Origin: a virus
Length of the DNA stretch: 64,000 bases
IMG/VR virus record: IMGVR_UViG_2895319678_000007
Reading direction: 5' to 3' (one strand)
The notes beneath the pieces were generated by a model. The model was not told where the DNA came from and did not search any database. It worked only from the letters and a program-made list of their open reading frames with translations. The position numbers and the translations under genes are program-made. This document shows positions 1 through 64,000 of this stretch, in pieces (within the stretch, counting starts at the first letter, position 1; every line of letters starts with the position of its first letter).

Positions 1-1
1 C

Positions 2-1120
2 ATGGGCGTTCAGGGATGCCTTGTCCATAGTTATGCAACGCGATCTGGTGTCGGAAAAACAACGTCCGCACGTCTGGCGATATCGATTTGGGGTCGTCCC
101 CAAGTCGATGGCGGCAGTGGCATTGAAGGTCTGACACGTGATACCGCAGTTGCCCTGTATCGACGACTCGGCGAATTAAACGCCATCGCCATGTGCATTG
201 ACGAAATCACGGAACGTAAGGGCAAAGAACTCACGGATTTTGTCTATTCCATCACACAAGGACGCGACAAGGACAGAGGGTTACCGAATACGAATCGTTT
301 GCAGGAGAATAATGGTTCCTGGACAATGGCGGTTTTATCAACAGGAAACTTATCACTGACACAACAACTGGTAAACATGAACGCACTGTCTGAGGCGCTT
401 AACGCGCGTGTCATTGAACTGGACATGAGCAATCTACCAAGCCTGTGGGGACGCAACAACGAGAACAAAGAATTCGTTGAACAAACGTTTATGTTAGCCC
501 GTACCCTTCATGCAGGGGCCGCAGGGCGATTCTGGTTACGAAACCTCATGCGGAATATGGATTTGGTGAAAAAACTCTGTGAGGACGTAAGTCGGGAATG
601 TCAGGAGTTCTTTGATTTTACACAAAAAGAACGTTACTGGACATGGACAGTCTCACTGGGGATCGCCGGATTAATTATCGGTAAAGAGCTGGGTATATGG
701 GATTTTGATGTAGGGCGGGTGATGACCGCAGTCAAAGCCCAGTTAGAGCGGATACGAGTCAACGTCGAGCAAGATAAAATTACACCGGCAAGTATCTTTG
801 AGCACTTTATTTCGGCCACCTTTGAGAACCGGCTGGAAATCCGGGCAGCAAACACCCCGATCCTGTCGAACCAGCTCCCCTCGAAAGAACTCGGTTTACG
901 TCAGGAAAATTACAGCCATAAATTATTTATTAATAAAGGTTTCGCACGGCGTTGGTGTGAAAGTAATAACTATCCTTTTGACCTGTTTAAAGAGCACATG
1001 AAGATACTGCGTGCACGTGATACCCGTAAACACATGCTGGAAGGCGTTACCAGTATTCCGTCAAAATCAAAAAGGCCCAATGTTTGGGAACTTGATCTGA
1101 GAGGAGAAACCCATGACTAA
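2..1120 (+). CDS. C-terminal part of phage primase-helicase (DUF927/Cch-like NTPase), 5'-truncated by the window edge
   Basis: Walker A GVGKTT, Walker B AMCIDE, ITQGRDK motif; follows the phage replication genes if the element is circular. Confidence 0.8.
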   Translation: MGVQGCLVHSYATRSGVGKTTSARLAISIWGRPQVDGGSGIEGLTRDTAVALYRRLGELNAIAMCIDEITERKGKELTDFVYSITQGRDKDRGLPNTNRLQENNGSWTMAVLSTGNLSLTQQLVNMNALSEALNARVIELDMSNLPSLWGRNNENKEFVEQTFMLARTLHAGAAGRFWLRNLMRNMDLVKKLCEDVSRECQEFFDFTQKERYWTWTVSLGIAGLIIGKELGIWDFDVGRVMTAVKAQLERIRVNVEQDKITPASIFEHFISATFENRLEIRAANTPILSNQLPSKELGLRQENYSHKLFINKGFARRWCESNNYPFDLFKEHMKILRARDTRKHMLEGVTSIPSKSKRPNVWELDLRGETHD

Positions 1121-1661
1121 ACCCTCGACACGAAAAAAATCGGTGATCCCGTCTGCCGATACCTTGCAGGAGATCCCCATTGAGCCGAAACAAAGCAAAG
1201 CGCCCCGGAATAAACAACCGTATGTTTCACCGGATACGTTGCAGAAGTCCGCACAATTAGAAACACAGGCAGCTCTCTTACGTTCTGCCACGGAAGACGT
1301 TGCGGTTGCGGTAAACCATCCGGCACCACCCGTACCAGAAGCATTGATAAAACCGTCGGTGACAGCGGCACCCATCGTTCAATCTGAACCCGCGTTTGAT
1401 ACCCAGCTTATGTCACAACTCGTGGCGGCGTTAGCGCAACAGCAGCCATTAAAGACACCGCGTCTTGTGACCTCTGGCGTCGTGAACTATATGCACGTAC
1501 TGAAAGATATTGATGCAGTTGAGTTTGATCAAAAACTGGATGATCTCCATGCCATGTTACAGGCTCGTGCGAGTGCCCGGAGTGAAAATGCCAAACGCCT
1601 GCAAAATATGACACTGGCTATGCATATTTATCAGGAATTTACGGAACTCTGGCCCCGTTAG
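1113..1661 (+). CDS. Hypothetical phage protein with basic, Pro-rich N-terminus
   Basis: 182-aa ORF overlapping the primase stop, SD GGAG upstream. Confidence 0.65.
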   Translation: MTKPSTRKKSVIPSADTLQEIPIEPKQSKAPRNKQPYVSPDTLQKSAQLETQAALLRSATEDVAVAVNHPAPPVPEALIKPSVTAAPIVQSEPAFDTQLMSQLVAALAQQQPLKTPRLVTSGVVNYMHVLKDIDAVEFDQKLDDLHAMLQARASARSENAKRLQNMTLAMHIYQEFTELWPR

Positions 1662-1730
1662 TACGGATACCTTCATGCCACTTCTGACCACCAATGCTGA
1701 GGAGTGGCCCATTAAAAAGGAAAAATCACG

Positions 1731-2294
1731 ATGAGTGTTGTGCTCTACGATGCCCAAGAAAATTGTTTGTATGCGGATTCCATTTGTGTCGATAACTATC
1801 ATCGCATGACGGTTCAAAAAGTGTTTACTTACCACCTGGATCGTACAAATGATGATGAACGCGGATTAGCGGGTTTTGTTGGTGACCCCTCAATAGGTTA
1901 TGCGCTTATTCATGCCTATCGGTGCGGCGGGATGAATTTCTGCGAACAAACCCGCACAGAATTGCTGACGCATTTCCGAGATTCTGAGGAAGGGGATACC
2001 GGAAATATATTGATTATCCCTGAAAAACAGCCGTATATGTGGGTAACGTCGGGACTTTCTGCCCCCTTTTTCCCCGTACCAAAACAACGGATAGTGATTG
2101 GTGATCCACAAATAACCTCACGGGTATACAGCAATCTTGATCATGGTATGTTGCCAAAAGAGGCCATAGAAGATGCCTGTTGTGTCAGTAAAAAATTTGA
2201 TGCGGTGCATTTGGTTTCAGAGCCGGTTATCCATATTTCGATCTCATCACCGAATACAGAAATGCTTATCAATTTAAATGATGTTGTTAGATAA
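1731..2294 (+). CDS. Ntn-hydrolase / HslV-proteasome-beta-like protein
   Basis: N-terminal S-V-V-L...ADS...QKV...LAGFVG pattern parallels HslV T-T-I...GDG...KKV...IAGFAG. Confidence 0.55.
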   Translation: MSVVLYDAQENCLYADSICVDNYHRMTVQKVFTYHLDRTNDDERGLAGFVGDPSIGYALIHAYRCGGMNFCEQTRTELLTHFRDSEEGDTGNILIIPEKQPYMWVTSGLSAPFFPVPKQRIVIGDPQITSRVYSNLDHGMLPKEAIEDACCVSKKFDAVHLVSEPVIHISISSPNTEMLINLNDVVR

Positions 2295-2446: not shown

Positions 2447-2881
2447 TTGAAATATAAAATTATTATGACTCGTTCTCTTAGTACACTTGTTCTTATTTTT
2501 GTCAGTATGGCAACTTATGTGAGCGTATCCTATGCAGAAACATTCAATAAGGCACAAACAATTCAGAAAGCATTGAAAGAAACGCAAGAGAAAGTTATGG
2601 AACTCAATACGAATCTACCAAAAAGGATTAATGAATATGTGATACTGGAAAAAGTGGAAGCAGATAATATAGGACTGGTTTATATCTTAACAGTATTAAT
2701 GCCTATCACGAAAGAAATAAAAAATGAAATTAATGCCGCTATGCTTAGTACGATTAAGTCCTCCTGGTGCAAAGAAAGCTGGTTTAATAATTCGCTTTAT
2801 TCACCAATGATTTCTTTTTTTTACAAGGGGTCTGGGAACACACAAGCCATCGTTATGGTGAACAAATATGATTGTAAATAA
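2447..2881 (+). CDS. Secreted/periplasmic protein (moron)
   Basis: AT-rich ORF, hydrophobic N-terminus ending in SYA (signal peptidase I-like), two Cys; start may be ATG 2465. Confidence 0.65.
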   Translation: MKYKIIMTRSLSTLVLIFVSMATYVSVSYAETFNKAQTIQKALKETQEKVMELNTNLPKRINEYVILEKVEADNIGLVYILTVLMPITKEIKNEINAAMLSTIKSSWCKESWFNNSLYSPMISFFYKGSGNTQAIVMVNKYDCK

Positions 2882-2913
2882 GCTATTCCGTTCCTAAACT
2901 GAAGGTAGAGTAC

Positions 2914-3093
2914 ATGAACGACGAATTTTTCGAATTATTAGGTTTTTTGGTTATGGGACTGGCTTTATTGGGGTGGCTAACCTCGATAATATCAGATGCT
3001 TATCATAAACTAATTTGGTGGGTTATCGTTGATATTACTACGTTTCCTTTGGGGGTACTGAGAGGGTTCGGAGTGTGGTTTGGTTTTATTTGA
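2914..3093 (+). CDS. 59-aa two-TM membrane protein (not in ORF track)
   Basis: Hand translation MNDEFFELLGFLVMGLALLGWLTSIISDAYHKLIWWVIVDITTFPLGVLRGFGVWFGFI*, SD GAAGG upstream. Confidence 0.7.
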   Translation: MNDEFFELLGFLVMGLALLGWLTSIISDAYHKLIWWVIVDITTFPLGVLRGFGVWFGFI

Positions 3094-3117
3094 GTAAAAG
3101 TCTTCTGATAGGATGAT

Positions 3118-3236
3118 CCCCCCTCCCTGCTAAGCCATGAGCGAAGCGAACCTTCTGCACGGAACGCGTTCGTACTCGACAGCATAATGTCTTTGATGAG
3201 ATTTAGTCGCGTTGGTTTTAAAATTGATGCGTTGTA
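3118..3236. repeat. Copy 1 of a ~118-bp imperfect direct repeat (ssi/primosome-site-like)
   Basis: CCCCCTCCCTGCTAAGCC(A/G)TGAGCG(A/G)AGCGAAC...TGTCTTTGATGAGAT aligns with 7555-7673 at roughly 80% identity. Confidence 0.85.
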
Positions 3237-3425
3237 CACTCAACAATATGAAATATATTATTTATTTTAACGTTATGGAACTTTTGGATGCATCGGGCGA
3301 AATACCCCTTAATCAAAATTTTCAAAATAAAAAATAATACACTGGCAAGTCTATTTCAATTTTGACTTATATGTTAAGTTAACCACCTCTTATTAAATCA
3401 TTAAAATAACTAGGATGGTGATTTT

Positions 3426-3905
3426 ATGTCATATATGATTTATCTATCGTTAAACGGTAAAAAACAAGGTCTGATATCTTCTGGATGCTCAACTCTCGAT
3501 TCCATCGGAAATCGATATCAAAAAGGACATGAGGATCAAATACAGGTACTTAGCCTAAATCATACTATTACACGAGAACAAAATGTCAGCCATCAACCTA
3601 TACAGTTTATTAAACCCGTAGATAAGTCATCACCACTATTGGCAATGGCTATAGACTCCAACGAATCGCTAGACGGTAAATTTATTTTTTACAGAACTTC
3701 TCAGTCTGGGCAATTAGAGTTGTTTTATGAGATTAAAATAACTGACGCTACTATCACTGATGTTTCTTGTGTATACCCTCACTCTATCAATAACTTCGAT
3801 GCCATCCCACATGAAAGGGTTTTCCTAAATTACAAATCCATCGCATGGAATCATATAACCGCTGGTACATCAGCATATAGCATATGGGAAGATAGAAATT
3901 ATTAA
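3426..3905 (+). CDS. hcp: Orphan T6SS tube protein Hcp (TssD)
   Basis: IYLSLNGKKQGLISSGC, HEDQIQVL, KPVDKSSPLL, Y.IKITDATI, E...LNYKSIAWNH motifs; 159 aa. Confidence 0.93.
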   Translation: MSYMIYLSLNGKKQGLISSGCSTLDSIGNRYQKGHEDQIQVLSLNHTITREQNVSHQPIQFIKPVDKSSPLLAMAIDSNESLDGKFIFYRTSQSGQLELFYEIKITDATITDVSCVYPHSINNFDAIPHERVFLNYKSIAWNHITAGTSAYSIWEDRNY

Positions 3906-3910
3906 TAGAG

Positions 3911-3935
3911 TAAGCATAGCATTTTGCTATGCTTA
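3911..3935. terminator. Bidirectional hairpin between convergent hcp and DUF1240 gene
   Basis: TAAGCATAGC-ATTTT-GCTATGCTTA. Confidence 0.65.
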
Positions 3936-4367
3936 TTTACATAACGATATGTTTTTCACATACTTATTAGTTTCCATCCATGATGTTTTATCACATAAGA
4001 AATAATTTTCACTTTTCAATTTAAATTCAACATAAAAAGAAAAAACCAAAGTAAAAACAAAACCAATTACAACCATAAAGGTAAATAATCCGCCCAATTT
4101 ATTACTCGAATTAACCTTTTTTTTATTAATTAACGCTATATTTTTTTTACTTAAAATAGACTTAAAAAGAAGTAAAGATATATACATACATAGTGGACTA
4201 AACCAAATAAACCAAGCGCTTCTTATTGAGAATGTAATAATATCACTTCCAGTTAAAAGACCTACATAATCAATTATAGAGGCTAAAGCCCCCAATATAG
4301 ATGCACCCATAAATATGAGTGCCGAAACAGAAATCTTCACTTTCGAAGGAGAATTTATATTATCCAC
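3933..4367 (-). CDS. DUF1240-family membrane immunity protein (Tmi-like), cognate copy
   Basis: Three hydrophobic segments, C-terminal FKLKSENYFLC...NKYVKNISLCK; overlaps the effector stop. Confidence 0.8.
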   Translation of the reverse strand: MDNINSPSKVKISVSALIFMGASILGALASIIDYVGLLTGSDIITFSIRSAWFIWFSPLCMYISLLLFKSILSKKNIALINKKKVNSSNKLGGLFTFMVVIGFVFTLVFSFYVEFKLKSENYFLCDKTSWMETNKYVKNISLCK

Positions 4368-5253
4368 GTAGAGATCTCCCCCACATATTGAAAAATTGAT
4401 CGGGATGATAAGGTGTAGGAGGCTTCGCTGTTCTTTTTTCTTTCAATTTTTTAATTATAGATTCACTGATTTTTAATTCATTATCTAACTCCATTAATCC
4501 CCAAACGACAATAGCTCCAACTACAAAAACACCAAACGCTATAGCAGTAGCACTCAAAGCTGTGGTAATAACGAGCGAAGTTGCTCCTGTAATTGCCAAC
4601 CTAGCTATTGTGGTTCCTATAATCAACTTTGCCATATCCATTGATAAATTAACAAAAAAATCTGTTAATTCATATTCATCCTTAAGTAATAGTTCTACTG
4701 CTCTATATGCAGCGGAGAATACAATACAAAATTTAACACCTGAAACAAGACTACTTTCCATAGCGACAGAACCTACACCAACCTCCATTATTTTTTTATT
4801 TTTTATAAGATATCTTGTTGAATTTAAATATTTTCTTACCCCAGGAGTGTCTGTTAATTTTATATACCTCACTCCATTTTTTCCTAAATATTCTATAGCC
4901 TTTACGCCTTTACCTTTTAATTCATTTACTATATGAGTCATTATACCAATATCTATAGGTTTAAAATTTGATGCTACTTTTAAAACTCCTGGAATATCTC
5001 TAATGTTCCCTGCAAAATTTGAAAGGACATCAGTGGTTGGATAAACATTATCCCGAATAGATTTCATATTACCTTCTAACTCTTTCAAAAAAAGTATAGC
5101 TTCATCTTGATCTAATATAGCGTGGTAATCTATGTTTTCATTTAATTGTTTTTTTAGGTCTTTATAATTAATGTGATCCATTTGCTTTTTAAAATTCGCT
5201 TCATAGTTGAAATCATCTTCAACCCATGTTCTTAATCTTGGATCATATTTCAT
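4360..5253 (-). CDS. Tme-like membrane-disrupting T6SS effector
   Basis: YIKLT.TPGVRKYLNSTRY motif, long C-terminal hydrophobic helices, immediately upstream of DUF1240 and beside hcp. Confidence 0.7.
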   Translation of the reverse strand: MKYDPRLRTWVEDDFNYEANFKKQMDHINYKDLKKQLNENIDYHAILDQDEAILFLKELEGNMKSIRDNVYPTTDVLSNFAGNIRDIPGVLKVASNFKPIDIGIMTHIVNELKGKGVKAIEYLGKNGVRYIKLTDTPGVRKYLNSTRYLIKNKKIMEVGVGSVAMESSLVSGVKFCIVFSAAYRAVELLLKDEYELTDFFVNLSMDMAKLIIGTTIARLAITGATSLVITTALSATAIAFGVFVVGAIVVWGLMELDNELKISESIIKKLKEKRTAKPPTPYHPDQFFNMWGRSLRG

Positions 5254-5269
5254 TTTATAACTCCTTTTT

Positions 5270-5378
5270 ATTATTTATATCATTTTAATTACATTTATAT
5301 TTTATCGGATTCAGATATTTTTTCTTTAGTTTTTCTGCATTATTGAGAACTTTATCCATTTTACTTTCCAGTGCCTTT
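5270..5378. repeat. Duplicated upstream segment, copy 1 (copy 2 at ~6040-6143)
   Basis: TTTTAATTACATTTATATTTTATCGGATT...GCATTATTGAGAACTTTATCCATT..ACTTTC.AGTGCCTTTA in both copies. Confidence 0.85.
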
Positions 5379-5560
5379 AGAGTTATTTTATGAAGTTAAA
5401 ATAACCGATGATACTATCACTGATGTTTCTTATGTATATCCTCACTCTATCAATAACTTCGATGCCATCCCACATGAAAGGTAAATTACAAAGCCATCGC
5501 ATGGAATCATATAACAGCAGGCACATCAGCCTATAGCATATGGGAAGATAGAGTATTGTA
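5376..5560 (+). pseudogene. hcp: 3' remnant of a second hcp with a frameshifting deletion
   Basis: Near-identical to 3715-3900 (CTCACTCTATCAATAACTTCGATGCCATCCCACATGAAAGG); lacks the 5' half and several nt after GAAAGG. Confidence 0.88.
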
Positions 5561-5591
5561 AAAATATAAACTAAGCATATATTACATATGC

Positions 5592-6020
5592 TTAGTTACA
5601 TTCATCCATATTCTTGACATATTTATTAGGTGCAATTAAAGATGTTCTGCTACATTTAACGTATCCAGATTTCTTTAATTTATGATCAACATATATAGAT
5701 ACAGGAAAACTAGATACAAAAGATAAAGCAAAAATAAGTATGCAAAAATTCAAAAACAAACCACTAAAAGGAGATGGTTTATTAACTAATAGATTTTTTA
5801 TTGCTGATATAAACATATAATAGACTATTGGTAGCCCGAAACATGCAAAAAAAACCCTCCAAGAAAAATATATTTTACTATTCATTTTAATTAATGATAA
5901 AAAATCAACCCAAGAAAAATATAAATATAGTGTTGTGATAAACAAGAAAAAAACTGACATCACAATACAGAAAATTCTATTAAATATACTTATGTGGATT
6001 TTTTTATCTTTATTATTCAT
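5592..6020 (-). CDS. Orphan DUF1240-family immunity protein
   Basis: Same architecture as 3933-4367; ends KLKKSGYVKC...NKYVKNMDECN; no effector upstream. Confidence 0.8.
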   Translation of the reverse strand: MNNKDKKIHISIFNRIFCIVMSVFFLFITTLYLYFSWVDFLSLIKMNSKIYFSWRVFFACFGLPIVYYMFISAIKNLLVNKPSPFSGLFLNFCILIFALSFVSSFPVSIYVDHKLKKSGYVKCSRTSLIAPNKYVKNMDECN

Positions 6021-6348
6021 ATCTTACCTTTAATTCCTTTTTATTATTTTAATTACATTTATATTTTATCGGATTTAGCTATTTTTTCTTTAGTTTTTCT
6101 GCATTATTGAGAACTTTATCCATTATACTTTCTAGTGCCTTTAAACAAATTCCACGATAAACAGTGTATAGCGCGGGAGTACACTCTATAGCTATAGCAA
6201 GTCCTGTTCAAAAAACAGGCTTAATGTACAATAATTTTCGATATCCAAACTGACCTTATAGTCAATATCAATAGTTAGTCTAACCAAATTGACCAGACCA
6301 ATGAAAGTAGTATACTTAAAAGTGTGAATTCATAAGAGAGGTCATTCT

Positions 6349-6594
6349 ATGGAAAAGATTAATATATATGATGCGAAAACTAACTTGTCCAGAATTGTTC
6401 AGGAAGTCGCTCGCACGGGTGAACCCGTGATGATTGCCAAGAATGGTCATACCCTGGTTAAAATCATTGCATACAGAGAAGATAAACCGAAGCGTAAACT
6501 GGGATTCCTCAAAGGTAAAGGTATCATTCCCGCCAATTTTGACGATATGAATGCCCCCGAACTTGTTGATATGTTTGAAGGAAAAGACTCTTAA
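6349..6594 (+). CDS. vapB: Phd/YefM-family antitoxin
   Basis: NIYDAKTNLSRIVQEV..GEPVMIAKNG; stop overlaps the toxin start. Confidence 0.88.
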   Translation: MEKINIYDAKTNLSRIVQEVARTGEPVMIAKNGHTLVKIIAYREDKPKRKLGFLKGKGIIPANFDDMNAPELVDMFEGKDS

Positions 6595-6995
6595 TGGATT
6601 TGCTGTTAGATACCAATATTTTGCTGTTTATGGTATATGAACCGGAAAAATTGCAAAGCGATATTGTTGATATTCTTGAAGATACAGACAAAACGCTTTG
6701 CTTTAGTGCGGCGTCTATATGGGAAGTCGTCATTAAAAGCAATCTGAACAAAGCTGATTTTTCCGTCGATCCCGAACAGTTCCGGGACGGACTGTTTGAG
6801 GCTGGTTTGATTGAAATTCCTATAAAAAGCGCGCATGTGCTTGTTGTGAACGATTTACCTGAAAAACTACATAAAGACCCGTTTGATCGGTTAATTGTCG
6901 CCCAGGCTAAGTATATCAAAATTCCACTGATCACAAGTGATAGAAAGCTGATAGATCTTGTTAGTGATTACATAACCGTGATCCCTAACAAATAG
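6594..6995 (+). CDS. vapC: PIN-domain toxin VapC
   Basis: LLLDTNILL, SAASIWE, HKDPFDRLIVAQA, LITSD. Confidence 0.92.
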   Translation: MDLLLDTNILLFMVYEPEKLQSDIVDILEDTDKTLCFSAASIWEVVIKSNLNKADFSVDPEQFRDGLFEAGLIEIPIKSAHVLVVNDLPEKLHKDPFDRLIVAQAKYIKIPLITSDRKLIDLVSDYITVIPNK

Positions 6996-7002
6996 TCAAA
7001 AT

Positions 7003-7040
7003 GGGGTTCGCTTGGAAAACGGAAAATATCCCACGCTAAA
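7003..7040 (+). mobile_element. Solo 38-bp Tn3-family (Tn21-like) terminal inverted repeat
   Basis: GGGGTTCGCTTGGAAAACGGAAAATATCCCACGCTAAA compared with Tn21-type GGGG...GAAAACGGAAAATAAAGCACGCTAAG; no partner or tnpA seen. Confidence 0.75.
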
Positions 7041-7111
7041 TGATTTAATTCTGCACAGTGAACTTTCCGAGGGAAAGGGCGAAAATCCCCTTTATAGAAG
7101 TAATAAATAGC

Positions 7112-7417
7112 TTAAAAAAAATAGATGCCTGAATATATTGCACACATACTCCCAATCATTGAGAATGGTTGAATCCGTATGACTCCAGTAAGGAAAATCC
7201 CAACGCTACCAACCAACACCGCTGAGCTTTTTCTATCAAAATGTCCAAAATGTCCAAAATGTCCAAAATGTCCAAAATGTCCAAAATGTCCAAAATGTCC
7301 AAAGTGGCCAATCGCTAATCCAATTAAAAAGTAAGGTAAGTATCCGGAAATAAAAAATAACACGGCAGAAATTAATCCAAATTTGAAATCATCCATTAAA
7401 TTATTACTCTTTGACAT
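7112..7417 (-). CDS. Small membrane protein with a (His-Phe-Gly)n loop
   Basis: Strong SD GGAGG; hydrophobic segments flank eight HF(G/D) units. Confidence 0.7.
   Translation of the reverse strand: MSKSNNLMDDFKFGLISAVLFFISGYLPYFLIGLAIGHFGHFGHFGHFGHFGHFGHFGHFDRKSSAVLVGSVGIFLTGVIRIQPFSMIGSMCAIYSGIYFF
7238..7309. repeat. 9-bp tandem repeat AAAATGTCC x7 plus one degenerate copy
   Basis: Counted directly; in frame within 7112-7417. Confidence 0.97.
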
Positions 7418-7554: not shown

Positions 7555-7673
7555 CCCCCTCCCTGCTAAGCCGTGAGCGGAGCGAACTTTTCTGCACGGA
7601 ACATGCTTGTACTCGATAGCATAGTGTCTTTGATGAGATCTGACCGCGCGGGTTTTGAGATTGAAGTGCTGTA
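7555..7673. repeat. Copy 2 of the ~118-bp repeat, next to the plasmid origin
   Basis: Contains GTGAGCG; aligns with 3118-3236. Confidence 0.85.
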
Positions 7674-7699
7674 AGGTTTTATTGTCTTCTGATTTTTTC

Positions 7700-8116
7700 T
7701 GAGCGGCGCGGCGTTAGCCGCTGCAAGCGAAGTCCTTTCTTTTTTATTGATGTTTTCCTGAATTTCTATTGTCACTGTTTTTCCTTTGAACAAAGTGAAA
7801 AGGACTAGCATATAGCGTTGGGGCCTTTCTTAGAGGCCCAACGCAATGCCATCCCTTTTTTTAAAAGGCTTTTTGTTCAGAAATAAGTTTCGAAATTAAC
7901 TGTATTTACGGATAACTATTCGAAATTAAATGGTGCTTTATTATCCAATCCGCACGTTTTAAGGCAGGAACTCCTTTTTTAGCAGAAAAAATGACATAAC
8001 CAATGGGAACGCGCCTATGTAAAACGAACAAAAAATGCGCTAATTCCAGGGTGAGAGCAACAGGAAAACCGCGCATGGGCACGGTTTCATTTGATAAAGC
8101 GATGACGCCAATCAGG
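7700..8116 (-). other. Probable CIS/ori region downstream of repA
   Basis: Non-coding; hairpin at 7815-7844, TTCGAAATTAA twice, AT-rich; expected position for the IncFII/I/L/M replicon family. Confidence 0.55.
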
Positions 8117-9202
8117 TTACGTGACTACGACCCCTTCCTGCTCCAGCAAGAGTCGGTAAAACTGTTCTGAGTTTTCCGTGATATGGGGGTGCTGGGCTTT
8201 TACTTTAGTCCGAGCAAGGTAACTCGCCACGGTTGTTGTTGTGCGTTCCCACTGGACAAATAAGTCCCAGTAAGGCCGCGTGGATTTCTTTTTCCCGCGC
8301 AGGCGTGATACAGCCTGCTGCGTCTTCTCCAGTTCCGCTTCCAGATTTTCTGCACCCTGCTTATCCAGCACGTCAATCTGGTCTTTGATATCGTTAATCG
8401 CTTTCTCTTTTTGTTCCTGTAAATCAGGTGCGACAACGGAACGTTTGATATTCTTCAACAGTTTACGCAGGCCATGTTTATTCTGGATATCAATGCCCAT
8501 CCTTTCCATGCGTAACAAATGGCGCTGATATTTCTTATCCAGATTTTCTAACTGACCACTCTTAATCGCCCAATTTTGAAAGTCGATCAGGCTTTGCCGG
8601 ATTTCCTGATGCGGAATCCCTTTGGAGATAAAAAAGTCCGGTGTCAGCCAAATACGTACCGGTTTATTCTGCCCCGTGTCACTGTCTTTATCTCTGTGCA
8701 CCACCAGATGTTTCATTTGCTCAAAGACGGATAAGGCATGTAACGCCGTATCATAGGCTTTACGCCCATTCTCGTATTGATGCAGCACCCCCATTGCTTT
8801 CGCAATAAATTCAAAAGGCACCATCACTTCAAACAGATAATCATGGCTGGGGAAAAAATCCGCATGAGCCACCAATGCCAGCGCGAGTGATGTCATGGCC
8901 TCACGGCTTTCAGACCGGGCACGCACACGCATTGGCTTGCGCGTAAAATGGGTATTATTACGCTCTGAATAGGGAACATAGCCCTGTTGACGCAGGGCAA
9001 TTAAATCCCTGTCGAGCCACCAGTTGTGAACTTTCAGGGTACGCGAAAGACGCGCAGGCGTCCCTCTCGGAACCGGAATATCCTGATTCGGTGTATTGCG
9101 CCGATGGATTTTAGACTGCCCTTTTCGCAGGGCATTGGACTCGCCACGCCGGGTACGAACAAGGTTATCAGAAGCTGATGGGGTGTGTTGAACTTTATAC
9201 AC
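8117..9202 (-). CDS. repA: Plasmid replication initiator, IncFII-RepA superfamily (IncL/M-I-B/K-like control)
   Basis: RSESREA..LALAL, FIAKAMG, DTGQNKPVRIWLTPDFF; true start likely GTG 9202, overlapping the leader stop, with SD AGGGG. Confidence 0.88.
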   Translation of the reverse strand: MYKVQHTPSASDNLVRTRRGESNALRKGQSKIHRRNTPNQDIPVPRGTPARLSRTLKVHNWWLDRDLIALRQQGYVPYSERNNTHFTRKPMRVRARSESREAMTSLALALVAHADFFPSHDYLFEVMVPFEFIAKAMGVLHQYENGRKAYDTALHALSVFEQMKHLVVHRDKDSDTGQNKPVRIWLTPDFFISKGIPHQEIRQSLIDFQNWAIKSGQLENLDKKYQRHLLRMERMGIDIQNKHGLRKLLKNIKRSVVAPDLQEQKEKAINDIKDQIDVLDKQGAENLEAELEKTQQAVSRLRGKKKSTRPYWDLFVQWERTTTTVASYLARTKVKAQHPHITENSEQFYRLLLEQEGVVVT

Positions 9203-9251
9203 AACCCCTGCACTTATGGCGGGGATCAAAAAGTTGCAATAGAAGTCTCAT
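9195..9251 (-). CDS. repB: 18-aa rep leader peptide MRLLLQLFDPRHKCRGCV
   Basis: Hand translated; SD GGAG upstream; its TAA overlaps the repA GTG. Confidence 0.8.
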   Translation of the reverse strand: MRLLLQLFDPRHKCRGCV

Positions 9252-9262: not shown

Positions 9263-9267
9263 CCTAA

Positions 9268-55964: not shown

Positions 55965-56294
55965 ATGAAATACGTGCGTGTCACTCTTTCCTGCGAAGAA
56001 CAAGAATGGTCATATGATGCCGAGGAGGATTTGAATGAGGAACAACTCATTCGTTATATTACTGATTTACAGAAAAAAATAGAACACCATTATAAGCGTC
56101 CGCCCGCACATTACGATAAAGAAAAGCTACAAATGGCAGAGCATCATTTGCAATGTTTAAAAGAGCTTCATGACCGCCGTCAAGACACCGTAAGCCTCCC
56201 CTTTATGTCAAAGACCGGTGATTGGGTGTTGATGTTCTGCCTTATCGGGATGCTTTATCTGATTATCAGGCCACTACTGGGCATTGGAATATAA
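55965..56294 (+). CDS. Hypothetical protein with a C-terminal TM segment
   Basis: WVLMFCLIGMLYLII. Confidence 0.55.
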   Translation: MKYVRVTLSCEEQEWSYDAEEDLNEEQLIRYITDLQKKIEHHYKRPPAHYDKEKLQMAEHHLQCLKELHDRRQDTVSLPFMSKTGDWVLMFCLIGMLYLIIRPLLGIGI

Positions 56295-58386
56295 CATCAT
56301 GTTATACGCATACGATTATGGGATCAGGCAGCAGGGCATATTCAATGATAAGGAAAAGCAGCACGCCTGCAACAACTTAGCCAATGCGCTCGCGTCTGAT
56401 TTTGACCGTATTCCGAAAGTCTTTTTGGATTTTGAAACGTTTTATGATCCCGCCAATAAATACTCGTTATCCGCAAAAGGCATGACCTATGAAAAGTATG
56501 TTCGTGATCCCCGCTTTCAGGTCATACTGTGCTCCATTATCATTCCGGATACGGGCGAACGGTACTGGATACCCAATCATAAAGGTGCCGTGAGAAAAGA
56601 ACTGGAATCCCTCCAATTACATGACTGTAATGTCCTCGCACACAATACTCCCTTTGATGGTTTTATTCTGTCAGATTACTACGGTATCGAACCCCGTGAA
56701 TTTACCTGTACCCTGACGATGGCTCGGCCATTACACGGTGCAAAAGCAGCAAACAGTCTGGCCCGATTAGCCAAAGGGTATTCGTTGCCGGAGAAAAAAG
56801 ACGACGTTCACCATGTAATGGGAATGCGTCTGGAGCATTTCACCGCAGCGGGCTTGCAGCGGTACGGGGAGTATGGTCTACGAGATGTCGATATTTTACC
56901 GCCCCTCTACGGTTTGTTTCGGTGGCACTATTCTGAAATGGATATGGTCACGATGTCCGACACGATACGGGCGGGTTGTGTCTGTCAGTTTGATTTGGAT
57001 AAAGCATTATTACGTGAGTATATTCCGCGCCTGATACAGTTACAGGAAGATAAACTGGCAAAAATTTCGGCGGCTTTTTCACAAGATGTTGAGACGTTTC
57101 GTCAACGCTTATCGTCAAATCCCCAATTTGCTGAGGTACTGATGCAATTGGGTGTAGAAGTGCCGATGAAAGACAGTAAGACTGCCAAGAATCCGGACGG
57201 ATCACCCAAAAGGACGTATGCTTTTGCCAAAACGGATATGGGGTTTAAGGCACTGTTAACGTCAGGCGATCCCTTTCTGGAAGCAGTCTGTGAAGCACGC
57301 ATGGGCGAGAAGTCCACGATTGGCATTACACGGGCCAAAAATCTATTAGATATTGCGCATCGGGGTAAGATGCCGATCCCCCTGAAAGCCTTTGGTGCGA
57401 CGACGGGACGGTGGGTTGGCTATCAGGATATTAATGTCCAAAACTTTCCCAAACGTGGGGGTGATCTGACCTTGCGAAGATCTGTGCGGGCACCCAAAGG
57501 CTATTCGGTCGTGACCTGTGACTTAGCACAAATTGAAGCCCGACGTATGGCAGACCATGCAGGACAAAACGATTTGCTGCTACAGTTTGCCCGCAATGAA
57601 GATCCTTATTCTGACTTTGCCACGACATTGTACGGTTATGAAGTGTCAAAAACGAATGGGCGAAAAAAGGAACGTAACGTAGGTAAAGAGGGCATTCTGT
57701 CCCTGCAATATGGTTCGTGGTTTGAATCCTTCTATTTACGACTTCGCACGGCTTACGATCTGGATGTAACCAAAGAGTTCTGTCATGACGCTGTTTTACT
57801 GTATCGTGACCGTTATACAAATATCGTTCAGTTCTGGACAGAGTGCCAGAATGCCTTAGACGTCATGCTTTATGGCGGTTCCTATTCTTTTGGTTATGAA
57901 AATAACTATACCGCCATGAAAAACAGACTTATCTTGCCGGATGGTTGGGTATTACGTTATGACGATCTTCGCATCGCCGGTAAAGATGAACTGAACCGCG
58001 ACATTATTTTATATACCGATGCCGAGAAACGGGAAACCCGTAAAATTTATCGCGGCATCATTGCGAACAATGTCACACAAGGCAGCTCGACACGGATTTT
58101 GCAGGGGATGATGATGAACCTGCGAAATGACGGCCTTTTCTGGTGTTTAACCGTCCACGATGAATTAGCTTTTCTCGTGCCAAACGAAGACCTTTCTGAT
58201 TGTTGTGCACAAATCCAATACAGGATGAGAGAACGCCCCGATTGGGCACAACGGACACCAATAGATTGTGAGCTGACGGTTGGCCCCAATTATGGTGATC
58301 AATATGACGAAGATATCTGGATGGCGTCTGGCTTTAATCAGATTAATGCCGAAGCCCTTTTGAAAGAACGCAACCAAACGCAATAA
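56284..58386 (+). CDS. polA: Family A DNA polymerase with 3'-5' exonuclease
   Basis: LDFETFY, AHNTPFD, DLAQIEAR, RNVGKEGILSLQYG, LTVHDEL. Confidence 0.96.
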   Translation: MEYNIMLYAYDYGIRQQGIFNDKEKQHACNNLANALASDFDRIPKVFLDFETFYDPANKYSLSAKGMTYEKYVRDPRFQVILCSIIIPDTGERYWIPNHKGAVRKELESLQLHDCNVLAHNTPFDGFILSDYYGIEPREFTCTLTMARPLHGAKAANSLARLAKGYSLPEKKDDVHHVMGMRLEHFTAAGLQRYGEYGLRDVDILPPLYGLFRWHYSEMDMVTMSDTIRAGCVCQFDLDKALLREYIPRLIQLQEDKLAKISAAFSQDVETFRQRLSSNPQFAEVLMQLGVEVPMKDSKTAKNPDGSPKRTYAFAKTDMGFKALLTSGDPFLEAVCEARMGEKSTIGITRAKNLLDIAHRGKMPIPLKAFGATTGRWVGYQDINVQNFPKRGGDLTLRRSVRAPKGYSVVTCDLAQIEARRMADHAGQNDLLLQFARNEDPYSDFATTLYGYEVSKTNGRKKERNVGKEGILSLQYGSWFESFYLRLRTAYDLDVTKEFCHDAVLLYRDRYTNIVQFWTECQNALDVMLYGGSYSFGYENNYTAMKNRLILPDGWVLRYDDLRIAGKDELNRDIILYTDAEKRETRKIYRGIIANNVTQGSSTRILQGMMMNLRNDGLFWCLTVHDELAFLVPNEDLSDCCAQIQYRMRERPDWAQRTPIDCELTVGPNYGDQYDEDIWMASGFNQINAEALLKERNQTQ

Positions 58387-58394: not shown

Positions 58395-59303
58395 ATGCAG
58401 CCCAAAATAAAACGCGATACCTTATTTCTCATTGCGGATGTAGAGACATTATCGAATCTGGCCGGGGATAAACCTTTAGTGTGGGAGGTGGGTCTGGCCT
58501 TAGTGCGGGGTGACGGCCTGATACTGGGATCGTGGGGGTCACTGGTCAATGTGCAGGATATGATGGCACGGGGGTTTAAACAGACACCCAGTACGCTGGG
58601 ATGGCTTATGAGCCAAGACACCGATGTTCGTGCCCGGTTTCAACTTGCGTGTGAATCTGACACACCAACACTCATTGATGTCATACACGAAATGACCGAC
58701 TGGATTAAAACCACCCTCAGTACGCAGATGAATAAGGGAGAAATTTTTTTTCCTGTTCGTAATCTGTACTTATTGGGCCGGGGTGCAGCGTTTGACTGTC
58801 CGATTATGGAAGTGCTATACCGTGAAGTGCATAGTGAACCTGCCCCCCTACCGTGGCTATTCTATAATGGCGCGTGTCTGCGTACTTTTGAAATGATTTT
58901 CCCGATACGCGCAGCTCACACCGGCACAGCACATTGGGCGGAACATGATGCCCTATGGGAAGCGCAATGTTTATCACAACAGCTCGCCGTGTACTGGCAG
59001 TTTGCGAGTCAGATTAATGCGGCGTGTTATCAGATGGACAAGCAGGCGACATCCTCTCTACACACAGAACTCACCCCATTAGGCAGTATTCTGACGAACG
59101 ATACCGACAATCCTCTCACGCTGTATGCGAAATCCGATAGAACTGACAGTACCTCTTTACCGGATACGTATCAATATACTGATGAACCCTGCTTACATCA
59201 AAACTGCCCGGATTGTCATGGCGTGTTTGCAAAATCCAACGGTGAACCGTGTGTGCACCTCATGAGCTGTCATTGTCCGCGCTGTAAAAAAGAGAGGATG
59301 TAA
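58395..59303 (+). CDS. DnaQ/DEDDh 3'-5' exonuclease (Rv2179c-like) with a C-terminal Cys/His cluster
   Basis: IADVETL, AAFDCPI, CLRTF, HWAEHDA; tail CLHQNCPDC...CVHLMSCHCPRC. Confidence 0.82.
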   Translation: MQPKIKRDTLFLIADVETLSNLAGDKPLVWEVGLALVRGDGLILGSWGSLVNVQDMMARGFKQTPSTLGWLMSQDTDVRARFQLACESDTPTLIDVIHEMTDWIKTTLSTQMNKGEIFFPVRNLYLLGRGAAFDCPIMEVLYREVHSEPAPLPWLFYNGACLRTFEMIFPIRAAHTGTAHWAEHDALWEAQCLSQQLAVYWQFASQINAACYQMDKQATSSLHTELTPLGSILTNDTDNPLTLYAKSDRTDSTSLPDTYQYTDEPCLHQNCPDCHGVFAKSNGEPCVHLMSCHCPRCKKERM

Positions 59304-59304: not shown

Positions 59305-59547
59305 ATGGCACAAGTCATTATTACCGTGACCGATTTACCGAATGGTCAAATTGATATCCATTATAATTTTGGCGACGATTTTATTGGCCCCCAATCGGCT
59401 GCCGAGGCAGAAAAGCTAACGGATGCGCAACAGTTCAGTATTATCATCACGCAATTTATCACGGGATGGATGTTGGATTCGGAAGCCAGAAAACAGGCCG
59501 ATGACCAGCCACTGATACAGGTTCCCGGAGCGAAGACCGATGGGTAA
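59305..59547 (+). CDS. Hypothetical protein
   Basis: 80 aa, coupled to neighbours. Confidence 0.55.
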   Translation: MAQVIITVTDLPNGQIDIHYNFGDDFIGPQSAAEAEKLTDAQQFSIIITQFITGWMLDSEARKQADDQPLIQVPGAKTDG

Positions 59548-60367
59548 GATAATATTTTCAGAAAAAGAAAAAGACGACTTAATTGCACACCCACTGGATC
59601 ATGATGTTGAGTGGCCGAATAAAATCCATAAACCGGTTGGCGGCGGTAAACTGTTGTCGCTGGCCTTATCCTTTTCAAAACTGAGTCAGTATCAGCAATG
59701 CCCCAGGCGCTTTTATGAACAACACCTGACACATAATATTCCCTATACGGATACGCCAGCCACCTTGTGGGGCACACAGGTACACCAGGCACATGAAGAT
59801 TATGTGCTAAAAGGCCAACCCATGAATGCCGTCGTAAAGGAAAAAATCGGAACGGGTGTGGCTGATATGTTAAAGAAAAAATTTAATATCTTAGTGACTG
59901 AACAGCGTGTGGGTATTCCGCTTTTTGGTGAACAGGAATGGGCGATTAAAGCCAATGGTCAGGTTGCCAGTTGGTTTGATACATCCACCGTTTTTATGCG
60001 GGGAAAAACCGATTTAGGCATGGGGAGTCTCAAAAAAATTTACCTGTATGATTATAAAACAGGAAAAGATCGTTACCCGAAAACCGATCAGTTGGATTTA
60101 ATGAGTGTCATGGCAAAAGCGCAGCCGACAATGCAACGTTATACGCAATTTGATAGTGCCCTGATATTCTTAGAAGCAGGTAGTGTTAAAACGCATACGA
60201 CACATCTTCATGACGAAGGGCATGAGATACAAATGCGGAAATTTTTGCGGGAATCTTTACGTATTATTGATTCTTATGAACGGGATTATTGGCCTGAACA
60301 GACATCGCCGTTGTGTGCCTATTGCCCGGTGATGAGCTGTCCCTTTAATGCCACGGATCAGAAATGA
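59540..60367 (+). CDS. Cas4/AddB-like PD-(D/E)XK exonuclease
   Basis: SFSKLSQYQQCPRRF, GTQVH, RGKTDL..YDYKTGK, PLCAYCP...C. Confidence 0.9.
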   Translation: MGKIIFSEKEKDDLIAHPLDHDVEWPNKIHKPVGGGKLLSLALSFSKLSQYQQCPRRFYEQHLTHNIPYTDTPATLWGTQVHQAHEDYVLKGQPMNAVVKEKIGTGVADMLKKKFNILVTEQRVGIPLFGEQEWAIKANGQVASWFDTSTVFMRGKTDLGMGSLKKIYLYDYKTGKDRYPKTDQLDLMSVMAKAQPTMQRYTQFDSALIFLEAGSVKTHTTHLHDEGHEIQMRKFLRESLRIIDSYERDYWPEQTSPLCAYCPVMSCPFNATDQK

Positions 60368-61255: not shown

Positions 61256-62842
61256 ATGATGGCGACGTTGCAACTCTACCAGCAACGGGCGCTCGTCATT
61301 CAAGGAACAGAACAAGAGCTGGCACGGGCACGCGTGTTGAATCCGGGCGGACTGATTGACCTGGGCGACAATACGGTGGCCTATAAGTGGGACTATTATA
61401 ACGCGGCACTTCTGGCGGTTGCCGATTTACCCGCAGTGAGTCCGATTTATCGGGATTATCATTGGCCCGGCCCCAGTGATTTTCGTCCGTACCAGCACCA
61501 GATTATTTGTGCGGATTTTTTATGTCTCAGGAAAAAAGCCTATTGTTTTGCGGGGACGGGAACCGGTAAAACCGCTATTGGCCTATGGGCCGCGCATTAT
61601 CTGTATACCCTCGGCTTGGTCAAAAAGATCCTGATACTGTGTCCATCTTCCGTATTATTGGATGCGTGGCAGCCTACCGCCGCAAAATTGTTGTTTGGTG
61701 AGGCCGATTTTACGGTCATTGAGGGAACCGTAAAACAGAAACAAGAGCAGGTCGCCTCTGCTGCGCCGTTTCATATTACGAATTACGAAGCATTGAAAGG
61801 ACTTCATAAAAAATTTAGTCAAAATCATTATGACCTGATTATTCTGGATGAAAGTACGAAAATAAAGAACAGAGAAACCGATATATGGTCACTCGTTTAT
61901 CCCCTTGTGCGTAAGGCCACGTATGCATGGCAAATGACTGGGACGCCCACACCAATGGGGCCAAAAGATGCGTTCGGCCAGATTTGTATGTTTGATGGTT
62001 TTGGCAATACGGTGCCGAATATCTACTGGTGGGAAAATTTAACGACATGGAAGAAAAAAGACGCTTTCAAACGATTCCCCCTCAAGGGGTGGCAAGCTAC
62101 CGTCGCCAAGTACATGAAACCAGCGCTCCGCATTCGTACACGGGATTGTATCGATTTACCACCGATTGTGTATGAATCACGTTATTTGCCGTTAACAGCG
62201 GTACAGAAAGCAGCGATTCAAATGTTACGTACTCAGAAGATGGTTAATTTGGCGGGCGAAAATATCATGGGTGATAACCGGGCCATCTTATTGGATAAAG
62301 TTGTACAGATTTGCTGTGGTGCAGTCCTTTCTGAAAGTGGAGAAGTAGTCGAAATGAAGCCCACAAAGCGGTTGAATGAGTGTCTGGAAATTATTCACAG
62401 TGAAGAGGGGAAAGTACTTATTTTTGCCCCATTCCGTGCCGCCGTCGAAATGATTACCCGTTATCTACGTTCAAAAAATATCGCCGTGGGGGTTATACAT
62501 GGTGGCATCACGAGTAAGAAAGCACGTCAAAAAATCTTCGACAGTTTTCAAAATGACCTAAAGGGACAGATGCAAGTGATTGTGGGTGTGCCCTCGGCAT
62601 TTGCACACGGTGTCACGTTAACGGCAGCAAGTCATGCTATTTGGTACGCACCGTTTGCCAGTACCGAAGTGTATTTACAGGCAACAGCCCGCATGGAACG
62701 TAACGGACAAAAACACCATATGACAGTCACCGAAATGTGGGGCGATCAACGGGAAAAACAACTTTATGACATCATCGCAGGACGCGCCGAAGCGCAATTA
62801 ACTTTATTAGATATTTACAGGAGTCTCGCAAAAGACAACTAG
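61256..62842 (+). CDS. SNF2-family helicase
   Basis: AGTGTGKT, ILDEST, MTGTP, HGVTLTAA, QATARMERNGQ. Confidence 0.93.
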   Translation: MMATLQLYQQRALVIQGTEQELARARVLNPGGLIDLGDNTVAYKWDYYNAALLAVADLPAVSPIYRDYHWPGPSDFRPYQHQIICADFLCLRKKAYCFAGTGTGKTAIGLWAAHYLYTLGLVKKILILCPSSVLLDAWQPTAAKLLFGEADFTVIEGTVKQKQEQVASAAPFHITNYEALKGLHKKFSQNHYDLIILDESTKIKNRETDIWSLVYPLVRKATYAWQMTGTPTPMGPKDAFGQICMFDGFGNTVPNIYWWENLTTWKKKDAFKRFPLKGWQATVAKYMKPALRIRTRDCIDLPPIVYESRYLPLTAVQKAAIQMLRTQKMVNLAGENIMGDNRAILLDKVVQICCGAVLSESGEVVEMKPTKRLNECLEIIHSEEGKVLIFAPFRAAVEMITRYLRSKNIAVGVIHGGITSKKARQKIFDSFQNDLKGQMQVIVGVPSAFAHGVTLTAASHAIWYAPFASTEVYLQATARMERNGQKHHMTVTEMWGDQREKQLYDIIAGRAEAQLTLLDIYRSLAKDN

Positions 62843-62851
62843 GGGGCAATA

Positions 62852-63271
62852 ATGAGTGATCCTTTTATCGGTATCTCAACCGCGCAATTGGCCGCCGCGC
62901 ATATTCAATTGATGCAGCAGAAAGAAACGATTGAAGCTGTCCACAAGGCCGCAATGGAGGAAGAAACAAAAGGCATTGCGGATCAGTTACGCGTCCTGTA
63001 TTACGAAATACAAAAACGGATGCAACAAGAGAAAATTCATGCATTAGATACAAATGTCGGTAAGGTTCTCTTAAAAACAACTGTAGAATACAATGTGCAG
63101 GATTTGAATGCCTGGGGCGATTTTATTGTCACCAGTCAGGACTTATCTTTTTTCAGTAAGAGCATTTCAAAACCACGCGTGGAAGCGTACAGAAAACAAC
63201 ATGGTGATGCGTTGCCACCGGGATTAAAGGCATTTACACGACAACACATACAATTCAAACCCGTGAAATAA
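62852..63271 (+). CDS. Conserved phage replication-module protein preceding the SSB
   Basis: N-terminal coiled coil, T.VG.V, DW/F..FI, LPPGL motif. Confidence 0.6.
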   Translation: MSDPFIGISTAQLAAAHIQLMQQKETIEAVHKAAMEEETKGIADQLRVLYYEIQKRMQQEKIHALDTNVGKVLLKTTVEYNVQDLNAWGDFIVTSQDLSFFSKSISKPRVEAYRKQHGDALPPGLKAFTRQHIQFKPVK

Positions 63272-63281
63272 GGAATTCCTG

Positions 63282-64000
63282 ATGAATAATTCTATCGTGA
63301 CCTTTGATCATAATTTACCGGCGCATTTGCGCGATGAGCAGGACGGTCTGAGTGCTTACTGGGATGAGGTGGGTCTGTCCAGCTTTGCCCGTATCAAAAT
63401 GAAAGGAAACAGCTTACAGGCGTTTATTGGGCCGGAACTGGTTGCACAGTCACAACCGCTGCAACCTATGACCGTCGTCATGTTACGGCCATCAAAGGTC
63501 GGACGCACCTTTTATCATGGCATCTATGTTGAAGGCAGCAAAGAAGCCCCCGATTGTTATTCTAACGACAATATTACACCCGCTGCCGATGCAAAAGATA
63601 AGCAGTGTACCCGCTGTGATTTATGTCCACAGAATCTACCCGGTTCTGGCATCAATGGCGAATCACGGGCCTGTCGTTATCGACAATCTATTGCCGTCTG
63701 GACACCAGGAGAAGGTGACAGCACGTGGGATACCATTTTTCAGGTAAATTTATCGTCCACCGCTATCTTTGGCGATAAACCGAATCCAGATGGTTATATG
63801 GGACTGAATGCCCTGGTAAACTGGTTTAGGCGACAAAAATTAGACCCCTCGAAAGCCTGGATTCAGCTTGCTGTCGATCCTTACTCAGAACATAAACGTA
63901 TTGTGATGAAACCCGAAGGGTACATCAACGATCCCGAAGAGTATCAACAGGTACGAAAACTGATTGAATCTGACGAACTAGACCGTGTACTGCGATTGGG
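63282..64000 (+). CDS. Phage ssDNA-binding/annealing protein, 3'-truncated by the window edge (not in ORF track)
   Basis: Hand translation MNNSIVTF...FARIKMKG...RTFY.G.YVEG..APDCYSND...QCTRCDLCPQN..GSG....RACRY, open to the window end. Confidence 0.78.
   Translation, partial: MNNSIVTFDHNLPAHLRDEQDGLSAYWDEVGLSSFARIKMKGNSLQAFIGPELVAQSQPLQPMTVVMLRPSKVGRTFYHGIYVEGSKEAPDCYSNDNITPAADAKDKQCTRCDLCPQNLPGSGINGESRACRYRQSIAVWTPGEGDSTWDTIFQVNLSSTAIFGDKPNPDGYMGLNALVNWFRRQKLDPSKAWIQLAVDPYSEHKRIVMKPEGYINDPEEYQQVRKLIESDELDRVLRL

Follow-up and report, generated by a model that had tools for sequence, protein, structure and literature searches.

We analysed a 64,000-nucleotide (nt) stretch of DNA, here called the window, which is filed as IMG/VR virus record IMGVR_UViG_2895319678_000007 and corresponds to bases 2197-66196 of contig C101 (67,540 bp) in the draft genome (4.58 Mb, 302 contigs) of a Xenorhabdus strain. 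The element found there carries a block of virion and packaging genes on the minus strand (11.9-41.8 kb) together with a plasmid initiator gene and its control region, a resolvase gene, a partition system, four toxin-antitoxin (TA) pairs and a phage-type replication module. A preliminary description had read this combination as a podovirus-type phage-plasmid with an IncL/M-like antisense-controlled replicon. Two close relatives served for comparison, contig G233:C22 and contig G204:C23 (the latter from X. bharatensis), which come from the isolate assemblies of X. yunnanensis XENO-10 and X. bharatensis CS20, so that the element is known from three Xenorhabdus species in all. The nearest protein on record comes from Xenorhabdus sp. 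KK7.4, and the GC content of contig C101 is 44.1%, against 43.7% for the whole genome.

A short-tailed virion module

The late genes run in order from 39150 down to 11710 and encode a probable small terminase, the large terminase TerL, the portal, an unassigned 682-amino-acid (aa) protein, a probable scaffold, the major head protein, two proteins of ~200 aa, a 607-aa protein, an SLT transglycosylase, a 2305-aa protein and a 59-aa peptide. TerL (36929-38455) matched PHROG 2 (1e-26), and the nearest TerL proteins were those of short-tailed phages; the probable small terminase (38455-39150) was named by position only. The portal (34523-36532) matched Pfam SU10_portal and PHROG 332 and 1216 and was ~26% identical to the portals of the HMO-2011-type, Aeromonas MQM1 and Vibrio CHOED short-tailed phages. 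Portal and TerL relatives (25-33% identity) all belonged to short-tailed phages. The major head protein (29011-29976) was recognised by PHROG 267 (6e-15) and had a ratio of nonsynonymous to synonymous substitution rates (dN/dS) of 0.06-0.08. The two ~200-aa proteins (26207-27395) fell into PHROG 437 and 399, both virion structural proteins, and probably form adaptor rings; a weak PF24175 SU10_adaptor match was seen only in the relatives' orthologues of the 201-aa protein (26790-27395).

The 607-aa protein (22605-24428) had a PDB match, to the 577-aa chain A of entry 8JOV, which is present there in six copies (E value 9e-32). It also matched PHROG 511 (2e-66) and is probably the tail nozzle protein; tblastn placed its homologues in Ralstonia phage GP4, Serratia phage Parlo and 933W-type Stx phages. 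Downstream lie a virion-associated lytic transglycosylase (18787-19641; PHROG internal virion protein and endolysin families, Pfam SLT) and the 2305-aa large polyvalent protein (11873-18790; Pfam LPD38, 5e-10; dN/dS 0.09), which by analogy with gp47 of phi24B is probably an ejection protein packaged in the capsid. The late operon ends with the 59-aa Cys-rich peptide (11710-11889), which has two hydrophobic segments, is 84-89% conserved (dN/dS 0.06-0.12) and may be a holin. The tail fibre gene (39814-41775) precedes the terminase genes and was assigned by Pfam YadA_head and YadA_stalk and by NCBIfam; at 46-53% identity to the relatives it is the most divergent virion gene among the three elements.

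No open reading frame (ORF) of the late operon had a PHROG or Pfam match to a tape measure, tail tube or sheath protein. A sequence search of the PDB returned nothing for the portal, the head protein, the 682-aa protein or the two adaptor-sized proteins, and the 24-kb virion stretch (20000-44000) had no megablast match to any phage or plasmid record. The virion block is complete in its gene content and apparently of the GP4/phi24B short-tailed type. The nozzle match, the SU10-type portal, the short-tailed relatives of TerL and portal and the lack of any long-tail protein match thus uphold the assignment to the podovirus type, and TerL, portal, head protein, nozzle homologue, SLT protein and 2305-aa protein make up the complete-looking module that had been described.

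A plasmid initiator with a predicted antisense control region

The repA gene (8117-9202, minus strand) starts with a GTG at 9202 and encodes a 361-aa replication initiator (dN/dS 0.12), a form that is already on record. Full-length homologues occurred in 409 plasmid records from Serratia, Providencia, Yersinia, Edwardsiella and Xenorhabdus, where most carry the annotation 'Replication protein', and the family was present in 11 of 36 Xenorhabdus species genomes, compared with three for the phage portal. RepA homologues also occur on ordinary fimbrial and F-like conjugative plasmids; two of them, on ~60-kb contigs, turned out to lie on plasmids of these kinds. Neither Pfam nor NCBIfam had a match for the RepA of the window. 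Some family members gave weak matches to PF02387, and there was no PF02387 match anywhere in this genome. Against the RepA of pOXA-48, a genuine IncL/M plasmid, BLASTP gave an E value of 0.2 and hhalign a probability of 0.2%, that is, no detectable similarity. As far as these comparisons reach, the protein is not detectably IncL/M; it is a member of a plasmid-borne family that occurs commonly in Xenorhabdus, Yersinia and Serratia.

The region upstream of repA gave a different picture. The predicted rep mRNA (minus strand) forms a bulged target stem-loop (9299-9345) with UUGGCGG in its loop (9319-9325), followed by a second small hairpin and then by a leader ORF of 18 codons (9195-9251), which has a Shine-Dalgarno (SD) sequence and whose TAA (9197-9195) overlaps the GTG of repA. 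Within the leader, CCGCCA at 9217-9222 complements the loop of the target. We aligned the control regions of nine RepA-family members. CUUGGCGG was invariant in 9/9, changes in the stem preserved pairing, the second hairpin showed compensatory changes, and the leader ATG, the SD sequence and GCCA were conserved throughout. RNAalifold, unprompted, paired UGGCGG with CCGCCA in 8-9 of the nine sequences.

On the opposite (plus) strand, a promoter scan, folding and a sub-threshold Rfam match point to an antisense RNA gene of ~90 nt (9234-9360). A promoter-like site, TTGCAA-17-TATACT (9234-9262), has its predicted start near 9269, and the predicted 95-nt transcript would fold into two hairpins, one at the 5' end and a large one that has CGCCAA in its loop, ahead of a U-rich tail. 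The fold, at -27 kcal/mol, corresponds to a z of -3.9, and 0 of 200 shuffled sequences were as stable. The CopA-like Rfam match (9270-9350; 25.4 bits, threshold 60) begins at the predicted transcript start; at the gathering threshold Rfam had no match anywhere in the window. A Yersinia ruckeri plasmid of this RepA family, with a 49% identical RepA, matched the PK-repBA model of Rfam (RF01089) at the same position with 81 bits, as compared with 118 bits for pOXA-48. These observations support the conclusion that the control region follows the IncB/IncI/IncL/M design. The earlier label of an IncL/M-like antisense-controlled replicon is supported for the control region (stem-loop, leader, pseudoknot partner and predicted antisense promoter) and not for RepA, which has no detectable similarity to that of pOXA-48.

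Downstream of repA lies a mostly non-coding stretch (7566-8116, minus strand) with ~79% nucleotide identity to both relatives, an AT-rich tract and a hairpin; it is a candidate for the vegetative origin oriR. DnaA boxes were no more frequent than chance and none was significant. In a separate observation, the plasmid of Xenorhabdus sp. TH1 (NZ_CP147736.1; L007, 2176-3229) carries an above-threshold Rfam C4 antisense RNA together with STAXI and EFASI upstream of repB/repA.

Resolvase, partition and addiction genes

Beyond the replicon, the resolvase, ParMR and the four TA pairs that had been listed from reading the ORFs were all recovered by domain or homology matches. The resolvase (9511-10098, minus strand) is a small serine recombinase (Pfam Resolvase, 2e-43, plus HTH_7) that is 85-88% identical in the close relatives and probably serves multimer resolution. 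A ParMRC system occupies 41850-43435 on the plus strand and was identified by Pfam StbA_N (6e-56), the ParM C-terminal domain and PHROG partition proteins. The components of a type II system were all found: actin-like ParM (parM, ATG at 42062, to 43044), the adaptor ParR (parR, 43049-43435) and a repeated centromere, parC (41850-42050), in which at least five GACTCAAT repeats surround the near-consensus promoter TTGCAC-17-TATAAT. The first TA pair, a Phd-like antitoxin with a VapC PIN toxin (6349-6995, plus strand; Pfam / NCBIfam), stands apart from an addiction cluster at 47698-51150. There, Pfam recognised CcdAB (47698-48251, minus strand), PaaA2/ParE (48403-49124, plus) and TacA/TacT (50405-51150, plus); a 386-aa protein with no assigned family (49163-50323, plus) lies within the cluster.

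The partition genes sit at a locus whose content differs between elements. Between a 188-aa gene and the fibre gene, the window (41776-44068) has ParMRC, whereas the two Xenorhabdus relatives have ParA with a small partner (G233:C22, 1089-2050; G204:C23, 35939-36887), and two more distant relatives from public runs (L035, 3685-4908) have a DUF2570 protein, a CHAP endolysin and Acb2. From this comparison it looks as if lysis genes were swapped for partition genes at one locus. Lysis genes in relatives and partition genes here, at the same place, would exemplify one route by which phages may turn into plasmids.

Circularity of the element

The first 99 nt and the last 99 nt of contig C101 were identical to the two ends of contig C117 (862 bp). 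This small contig is an IS5-family insertion sequence (IS) of ~860 bp, with a two-frame transposase and the terminal inverted repeats GAGGCTATTCAG / CTGAATAGCCTC, and the same IS ends were found at at least 12 other contig ends of the genome. The assembler left C101 unclosed because the contig ends in this multi-copy IS. The sequence flanking the IS on C101 shows a 3-bp target duplication (TTA). The IS site, at which C101 ends, lies 2.1 kb before base 1 of the window and 1.3 kb past base 64000. In both relatives the flanking sequences are directly adjacent (G233:C22, 24697-24699; G204:C23, 61319-61321), and the undisrupted junction there lies in a single ORF of 147 aa, which immediately precedes the DUF927 primase gene; the insertion is specific to this strain. 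The related contigs (66,914 and 67,300 bp) break at points that differ from those of C101. The 66,914-bp contig has a 111-nt terminal overlap, and closing it there restores an intact fibre ORF of 468 aa.

A single IS copy joins the ends of C101, and the flanks are contiguous in two relatives; the element thus closes into a circle of ~68.2 kb. The window spans 64.0 kb (94%) of it, in agreement with the earlier guess that it holds almost the whole circle. The contig carries no tyrosine integrase, although 25 matches lie elsewhere in the same genome, so that the report of no integrase extends to the whole contig; its sole recombinase is the 195-aa resolvase. No chromosomal genes were found on C101. 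The evidence from the assemblies thus indicates an extrachromosomal circle that is not integrated.

Age of the hybrid and source of its replicon

The elements of the three Xenorhabdus species align collinearly, with ~85% nucleotide identity. RepA stands at the same place in all three with 80-82% aa identity, as does the resolvase, and the synonymous divergence (dS) of these two genes is ~0.6-0.9. The three RepAs form one clade (100/100 support) nested in Xenorhabdus plasmid RepAs, which suggests that a local replicon was captured once, before the elements diverged. With RepA and resolvase co-located in three elements at such divergence and one RepA clade, the view of a long-established hybrid is well founded.

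Purifying selection acts on all genes: over 51 of them the median dN/dS was 0.09-0.10 at a dS of ~0.6. The portal and TerL each had a value of 0.03, the nozzle and the giant protein 0.09, and RepA 0.12. All virion and replication ORFs of the window element are intact, with dN/dS of 0.03-0.16, and no ORF contains an internal stop; in X. bharatensis (G204:C23), the tblastn alignments of PolA and of the resolvase each include one stop, which may be terminal or a true break. Values of this size at a dS of ~0.6 require long-term selection on the particle proteins. CcdAB and TacAT are common to one relative only, and the AT-rich cargo (Hcp, DUF1240, VapBC) is for the most part confined to single strains. 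Three diverged copies separate what is fixed, namely virion, phage replication, RepA and resolvase, from what is swapped, namely partition type, TA pairs and cargo such as Hcp.

Phage replication genes, regulators and cargo

The PolA/SNF2/primase module was confirmed by Pfam, on the plus strand throughout. The window opens, as described, within a primase: the last 372 codons of a 983-aa DUF927 primase-helicase (2-1120; Pfam DUF927, 2e-23), whose gene starts 1.8 kb before the window and which is 92% identical in both Xenorhabdus relatives. At the other end lie PolA (56284-58386), an exonuclease (58395-59303), a PD-(D/E)XK nuclease (59540-60367) and the SNF2 helicase (61256-62842). The last ORF (63282 to past the window end) encodes a 581-aa protein of no assigned family. 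Anti-restriction genes (PF03230 family, ArdA; 51900-52998, plus strand) were recognised by Pfam, and a PAS-LuxR transcription regulator (10782-11465, minus strand) by Pfam PAS_4 and GerE and by a PHROG transcriptional regulator family. A 217-aa protein considered as a repressor had no informative match.

The AT-rich variable cargo (2447-7417, both strands; GC 29-36%), annotated by Pfam and NCBIfam, is mostly absent or different in the relatives. It includes Hcp (3426-3905, plus strand), two DUF1240 membrane proteins (3933-4367 and 5592-6020, minus) and a 101-aa membrane protein (7112-7417, minus) in which two hydrophobic segments flank a tandem array of eight GHF repeats. The GHF-repeat protein is absent from both relatives. 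Hcp is common to X. bharatensis (84%) and not to X. yunnanensis, and the Hcp/DUF1240 stretch (3426-6020) has a GC content of 29-35%.

Interpretation and alternative explanations

Three of the features by which a phage-plasmid is recognised were found on this element: a virion and packaging set, plasmid replication and partition genes, and, at the level of assembly, an extrachromosomal state. The IS-closed circle, the contiguity of the relatives at the junction and the 111-nt overlap in one of them bear out the term. We consider it likely that the element is both a plasmid and the genome of a short-tailed phage, carried in this Xenorhabdus strain as a circle of ~68.2 kb. In the carried state, the circle would replicate from the RepA replicon at a low, controlled copy number. 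The ~90-nt antisense RNA would bind the UUGGCG loop of the rep mRNA and so block both leader translation and the pseudoknot between loop and CCGCCA that repA translation needs. The resolvase would resolve dimers, ParMRC would segregate the copies, and the TA pairs would kill cells that lose the element. Upon induction, the PolA/primase/helicase set would take over replication and the late operon would build short-tailed particles.

Several observations weigh against this reading. A scan for hydrophobicity and lipoboxes recognised no holin, endolysin or spanin on the element, and tblastn with the relatives' DUF2570, CHAP and Acb2 proteins found no homologue elsewhere on any of the three Xenorhabdus elements. 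A lysis cassette was not found because partition genes occupy the locus where relatives carry one, which leaves the 59-aa peptide and the transglycosylase as the only candidate lysis function. Neither Pfam nor PHROG recognised a repressor or a lysis-lysogeny switch on the element. The IS splits the 147-aa ORF directly upstream of the primase gene; judged by its position it may be polar on the primase and reduce primase expression in this strain. Like the CopA-like match, the PK-repBA match in the window itself is sub-threshold, with 19.6 bits against a gathering threshold of 45. Two other weak points are that short-tailed phage-plasmids, although rare, are already known (PMC7969092, PMC10983915), and that the single-stranded DNA-binding protein (SSB) in which the window had been said to end could not be upheld, since the 581-aa protein has no SSB signature in Pfam or PHROGs and groups only with uncharacterised viral clusters.

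The missing lysis genes lend themselves to another explanation. The element could be a plasmid carrying a phage that can no longer lyse its host: the lineage would have swapped the lysis cassette for partition genes and would persist solely as a plasmid, with virion genes that are either kept for another use, such as release that is non-lytic or dependent on host lysis, or were disabled just recently, in this strain, by the IS. The lack of a cassette in all three Xenorhabdus elements, the presence of partition genes at what is the lysis locus of two distant relatives, the IS upstream of the primase gene and the missing repressor would all fit. On the other side, the intact virion and replication ORFs and their low dN/dS speak against a phage in decay, lysis might be brought about by the conserved membrane peptide and the transglycosylase in which the late operon ends, and the IS is specific to this strain. 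We regard this explanation as unlikely.

The element could instead be a virulent or pseudolysogenic phage that was co-assembled with the culture in a carrier state, and not a heritable plasmid. In favour of this, among 20 complete distant IMG/VR relatives (portal 29-48% identical) a tyrosine integrase is absent from 19, RepA family and resolvase are present in 0/20, and terminal repeats, a trait of free phage genomes, are found in many. Two of the 20 have a ParA. The Xenorhabdus clade, however, is alone in combining a copy-controlled RepA with a resolvase, a centromere-bearing partition system and four TA pairs; the element is present in isolate assemblies of three species, and it was struck by a chromosomal IS that is present at at least 12 other sites of the same genome. 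A carrier state is on this evidence very improbable. An integrated prophage, or a misassembly joining a plasmid to a prophage, is suggested by nothing except the multi-copy IS at the contig ends and is hardly credible, since the IS flanks are adjacent in two independent assemblies, the 3-bp duplication marks a simple insertion, the order of plasmid and phage genes is identical in three assemblies, and the contig has neither chromosomal genes nor a tyrosine integrase.

Within the phage-plasmid reading, a more specific history can be proposed, which we put forward as speculation and think rather doubtful. A Xenorhabdus lineage would have made a stable plasmid of an integrase-less, probably lytic short-tailed phage by capturing a local replicon and putting partition cassettes exactly where the lysis cassette had been, and strong selection would have preserved every particle gene. 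If this were true, particles might leave the cell without a lysis cassette of the phage, for instance by riding on lysis by the host or by other prophages, or serve the host as a delivery device.

Phage-plasmids are now regarded as a major conduit for genes that move between phages and plasmids, and nearly all of those studied are long-tailed. The present element extends them by a short-tailed lineage from insect-killing nematode symbionts, with a replicon whose copy control can be read from the sequence and is directly testable.

Comparison with known systems

The P1, N15, SSU5 and D6 phage-plasmids (PMC7969092) resemble this element in being tailed phages without integrase that persist as episomes by means of replication, partition, multimer-resolution and addiction genes and carry variable cargo. 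They differ in being long-tailed and in having other replicons, as the preliminary description had pointed out for the best-known types; short-tailed ones are rare and not unknown (PMC7969092, PMC10983915). According to Pfeifer et al. 2021, few phage-plasmids are Podoviridae, those named being some Klebsiella IncFIB members of the F116 community (PMC7969092). We found no relative within the described P1, N15 or SSU5 groups: the virion stretch had no megablast match, and tblastn with the portal reached only four plasmids, at 25-28% identity, all outside those groups. These are circles of 54-87 kb: CP061838.1 (E. coli), NZ_CP090492.1 (Photobacterium damselae), NZ_CP103299.1 (Endozoicomonas) and NZ_CP024609.1 (Massilia). 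In the available part of the text of two phage-plasmid catalogues, neither Xenorhabdus nor these four plasmids are mentioned.

In its virion, the element is closest in kind to GP4 and phi24B/933W, which are short-tailed with a T=9 capsid. Shared with them are the nozzle homologue, two adaptor-sized proteins, a virion transglycosylase, a giant LPD38 protein and a genome size near 60-68 kb. The architecture described in the phi24B preprint comprises a portal, two adaptor rings, a hexameric nozzle, fibres and a packaged 2811-aa ejection protein with an LPD domain (10.64898/2026.04.10.717836). Identity is, however, only 22-25%, and the fibre type differs. GP4 is not reported as a plasmid, and phi24B has a lambdoid genome organisation and lysogeny control (10.64898/2026.04.10.717836).

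In its replicon, the element shares with the IncB, IncI-complex and IncL/M plasmids (RF01089 PK-repBA; pOXA-48) a leader whose translation is coupled to that of repA, a stem-loop carrying UUGGCG in its loop, a hexamer farther along that complements the loop for a pseudoknot, and an antisense RNA on the opposite strand, the last being predicted here. It differs from them in its dissimilar RepA, in an RNA element that stays at 19.6 bits against a threshold of 45, and in lacking an upstream repC or copB, in whose place stands the resolvase gene. The combination of a GP4/phi24B-type virion with a replicon apparently controlled by pseudoknot and antisense RNA is not found described among phage-plasmids.

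The E. coli plasmid pSTEC648_2 (CP061838.1, 60.5 kb, deposited as a closed plasmid) shares portal, TerL, a nozzle-like protein, ArdA, PolA, helicase and DUF927 primase with the element (22-30%). It carries a 2318-aa giant protein in the equivalent position, with no detectable similarity to the 2305-aa protein. It differs further in having a recognisable holin-lysozyme cassette after the giant gene, a ParB-family protein and a HigBA pair, and no homologue of this RepA or resolvase. An integrase-less, episomal lifestyle may be widespread in this phage family.

The crAss-like phages are likewise short-tailed. Prototypic crAssphage has been proposed to be a linear phage-plasmid (PMC10983915). It is set apart from the element by its linear form, its repL-type function, its Bacteroidales host and its unrelated virion and replication genes, yet it resembles the element in being a phage with a reported plasmid lifestyle (PMC10983915).

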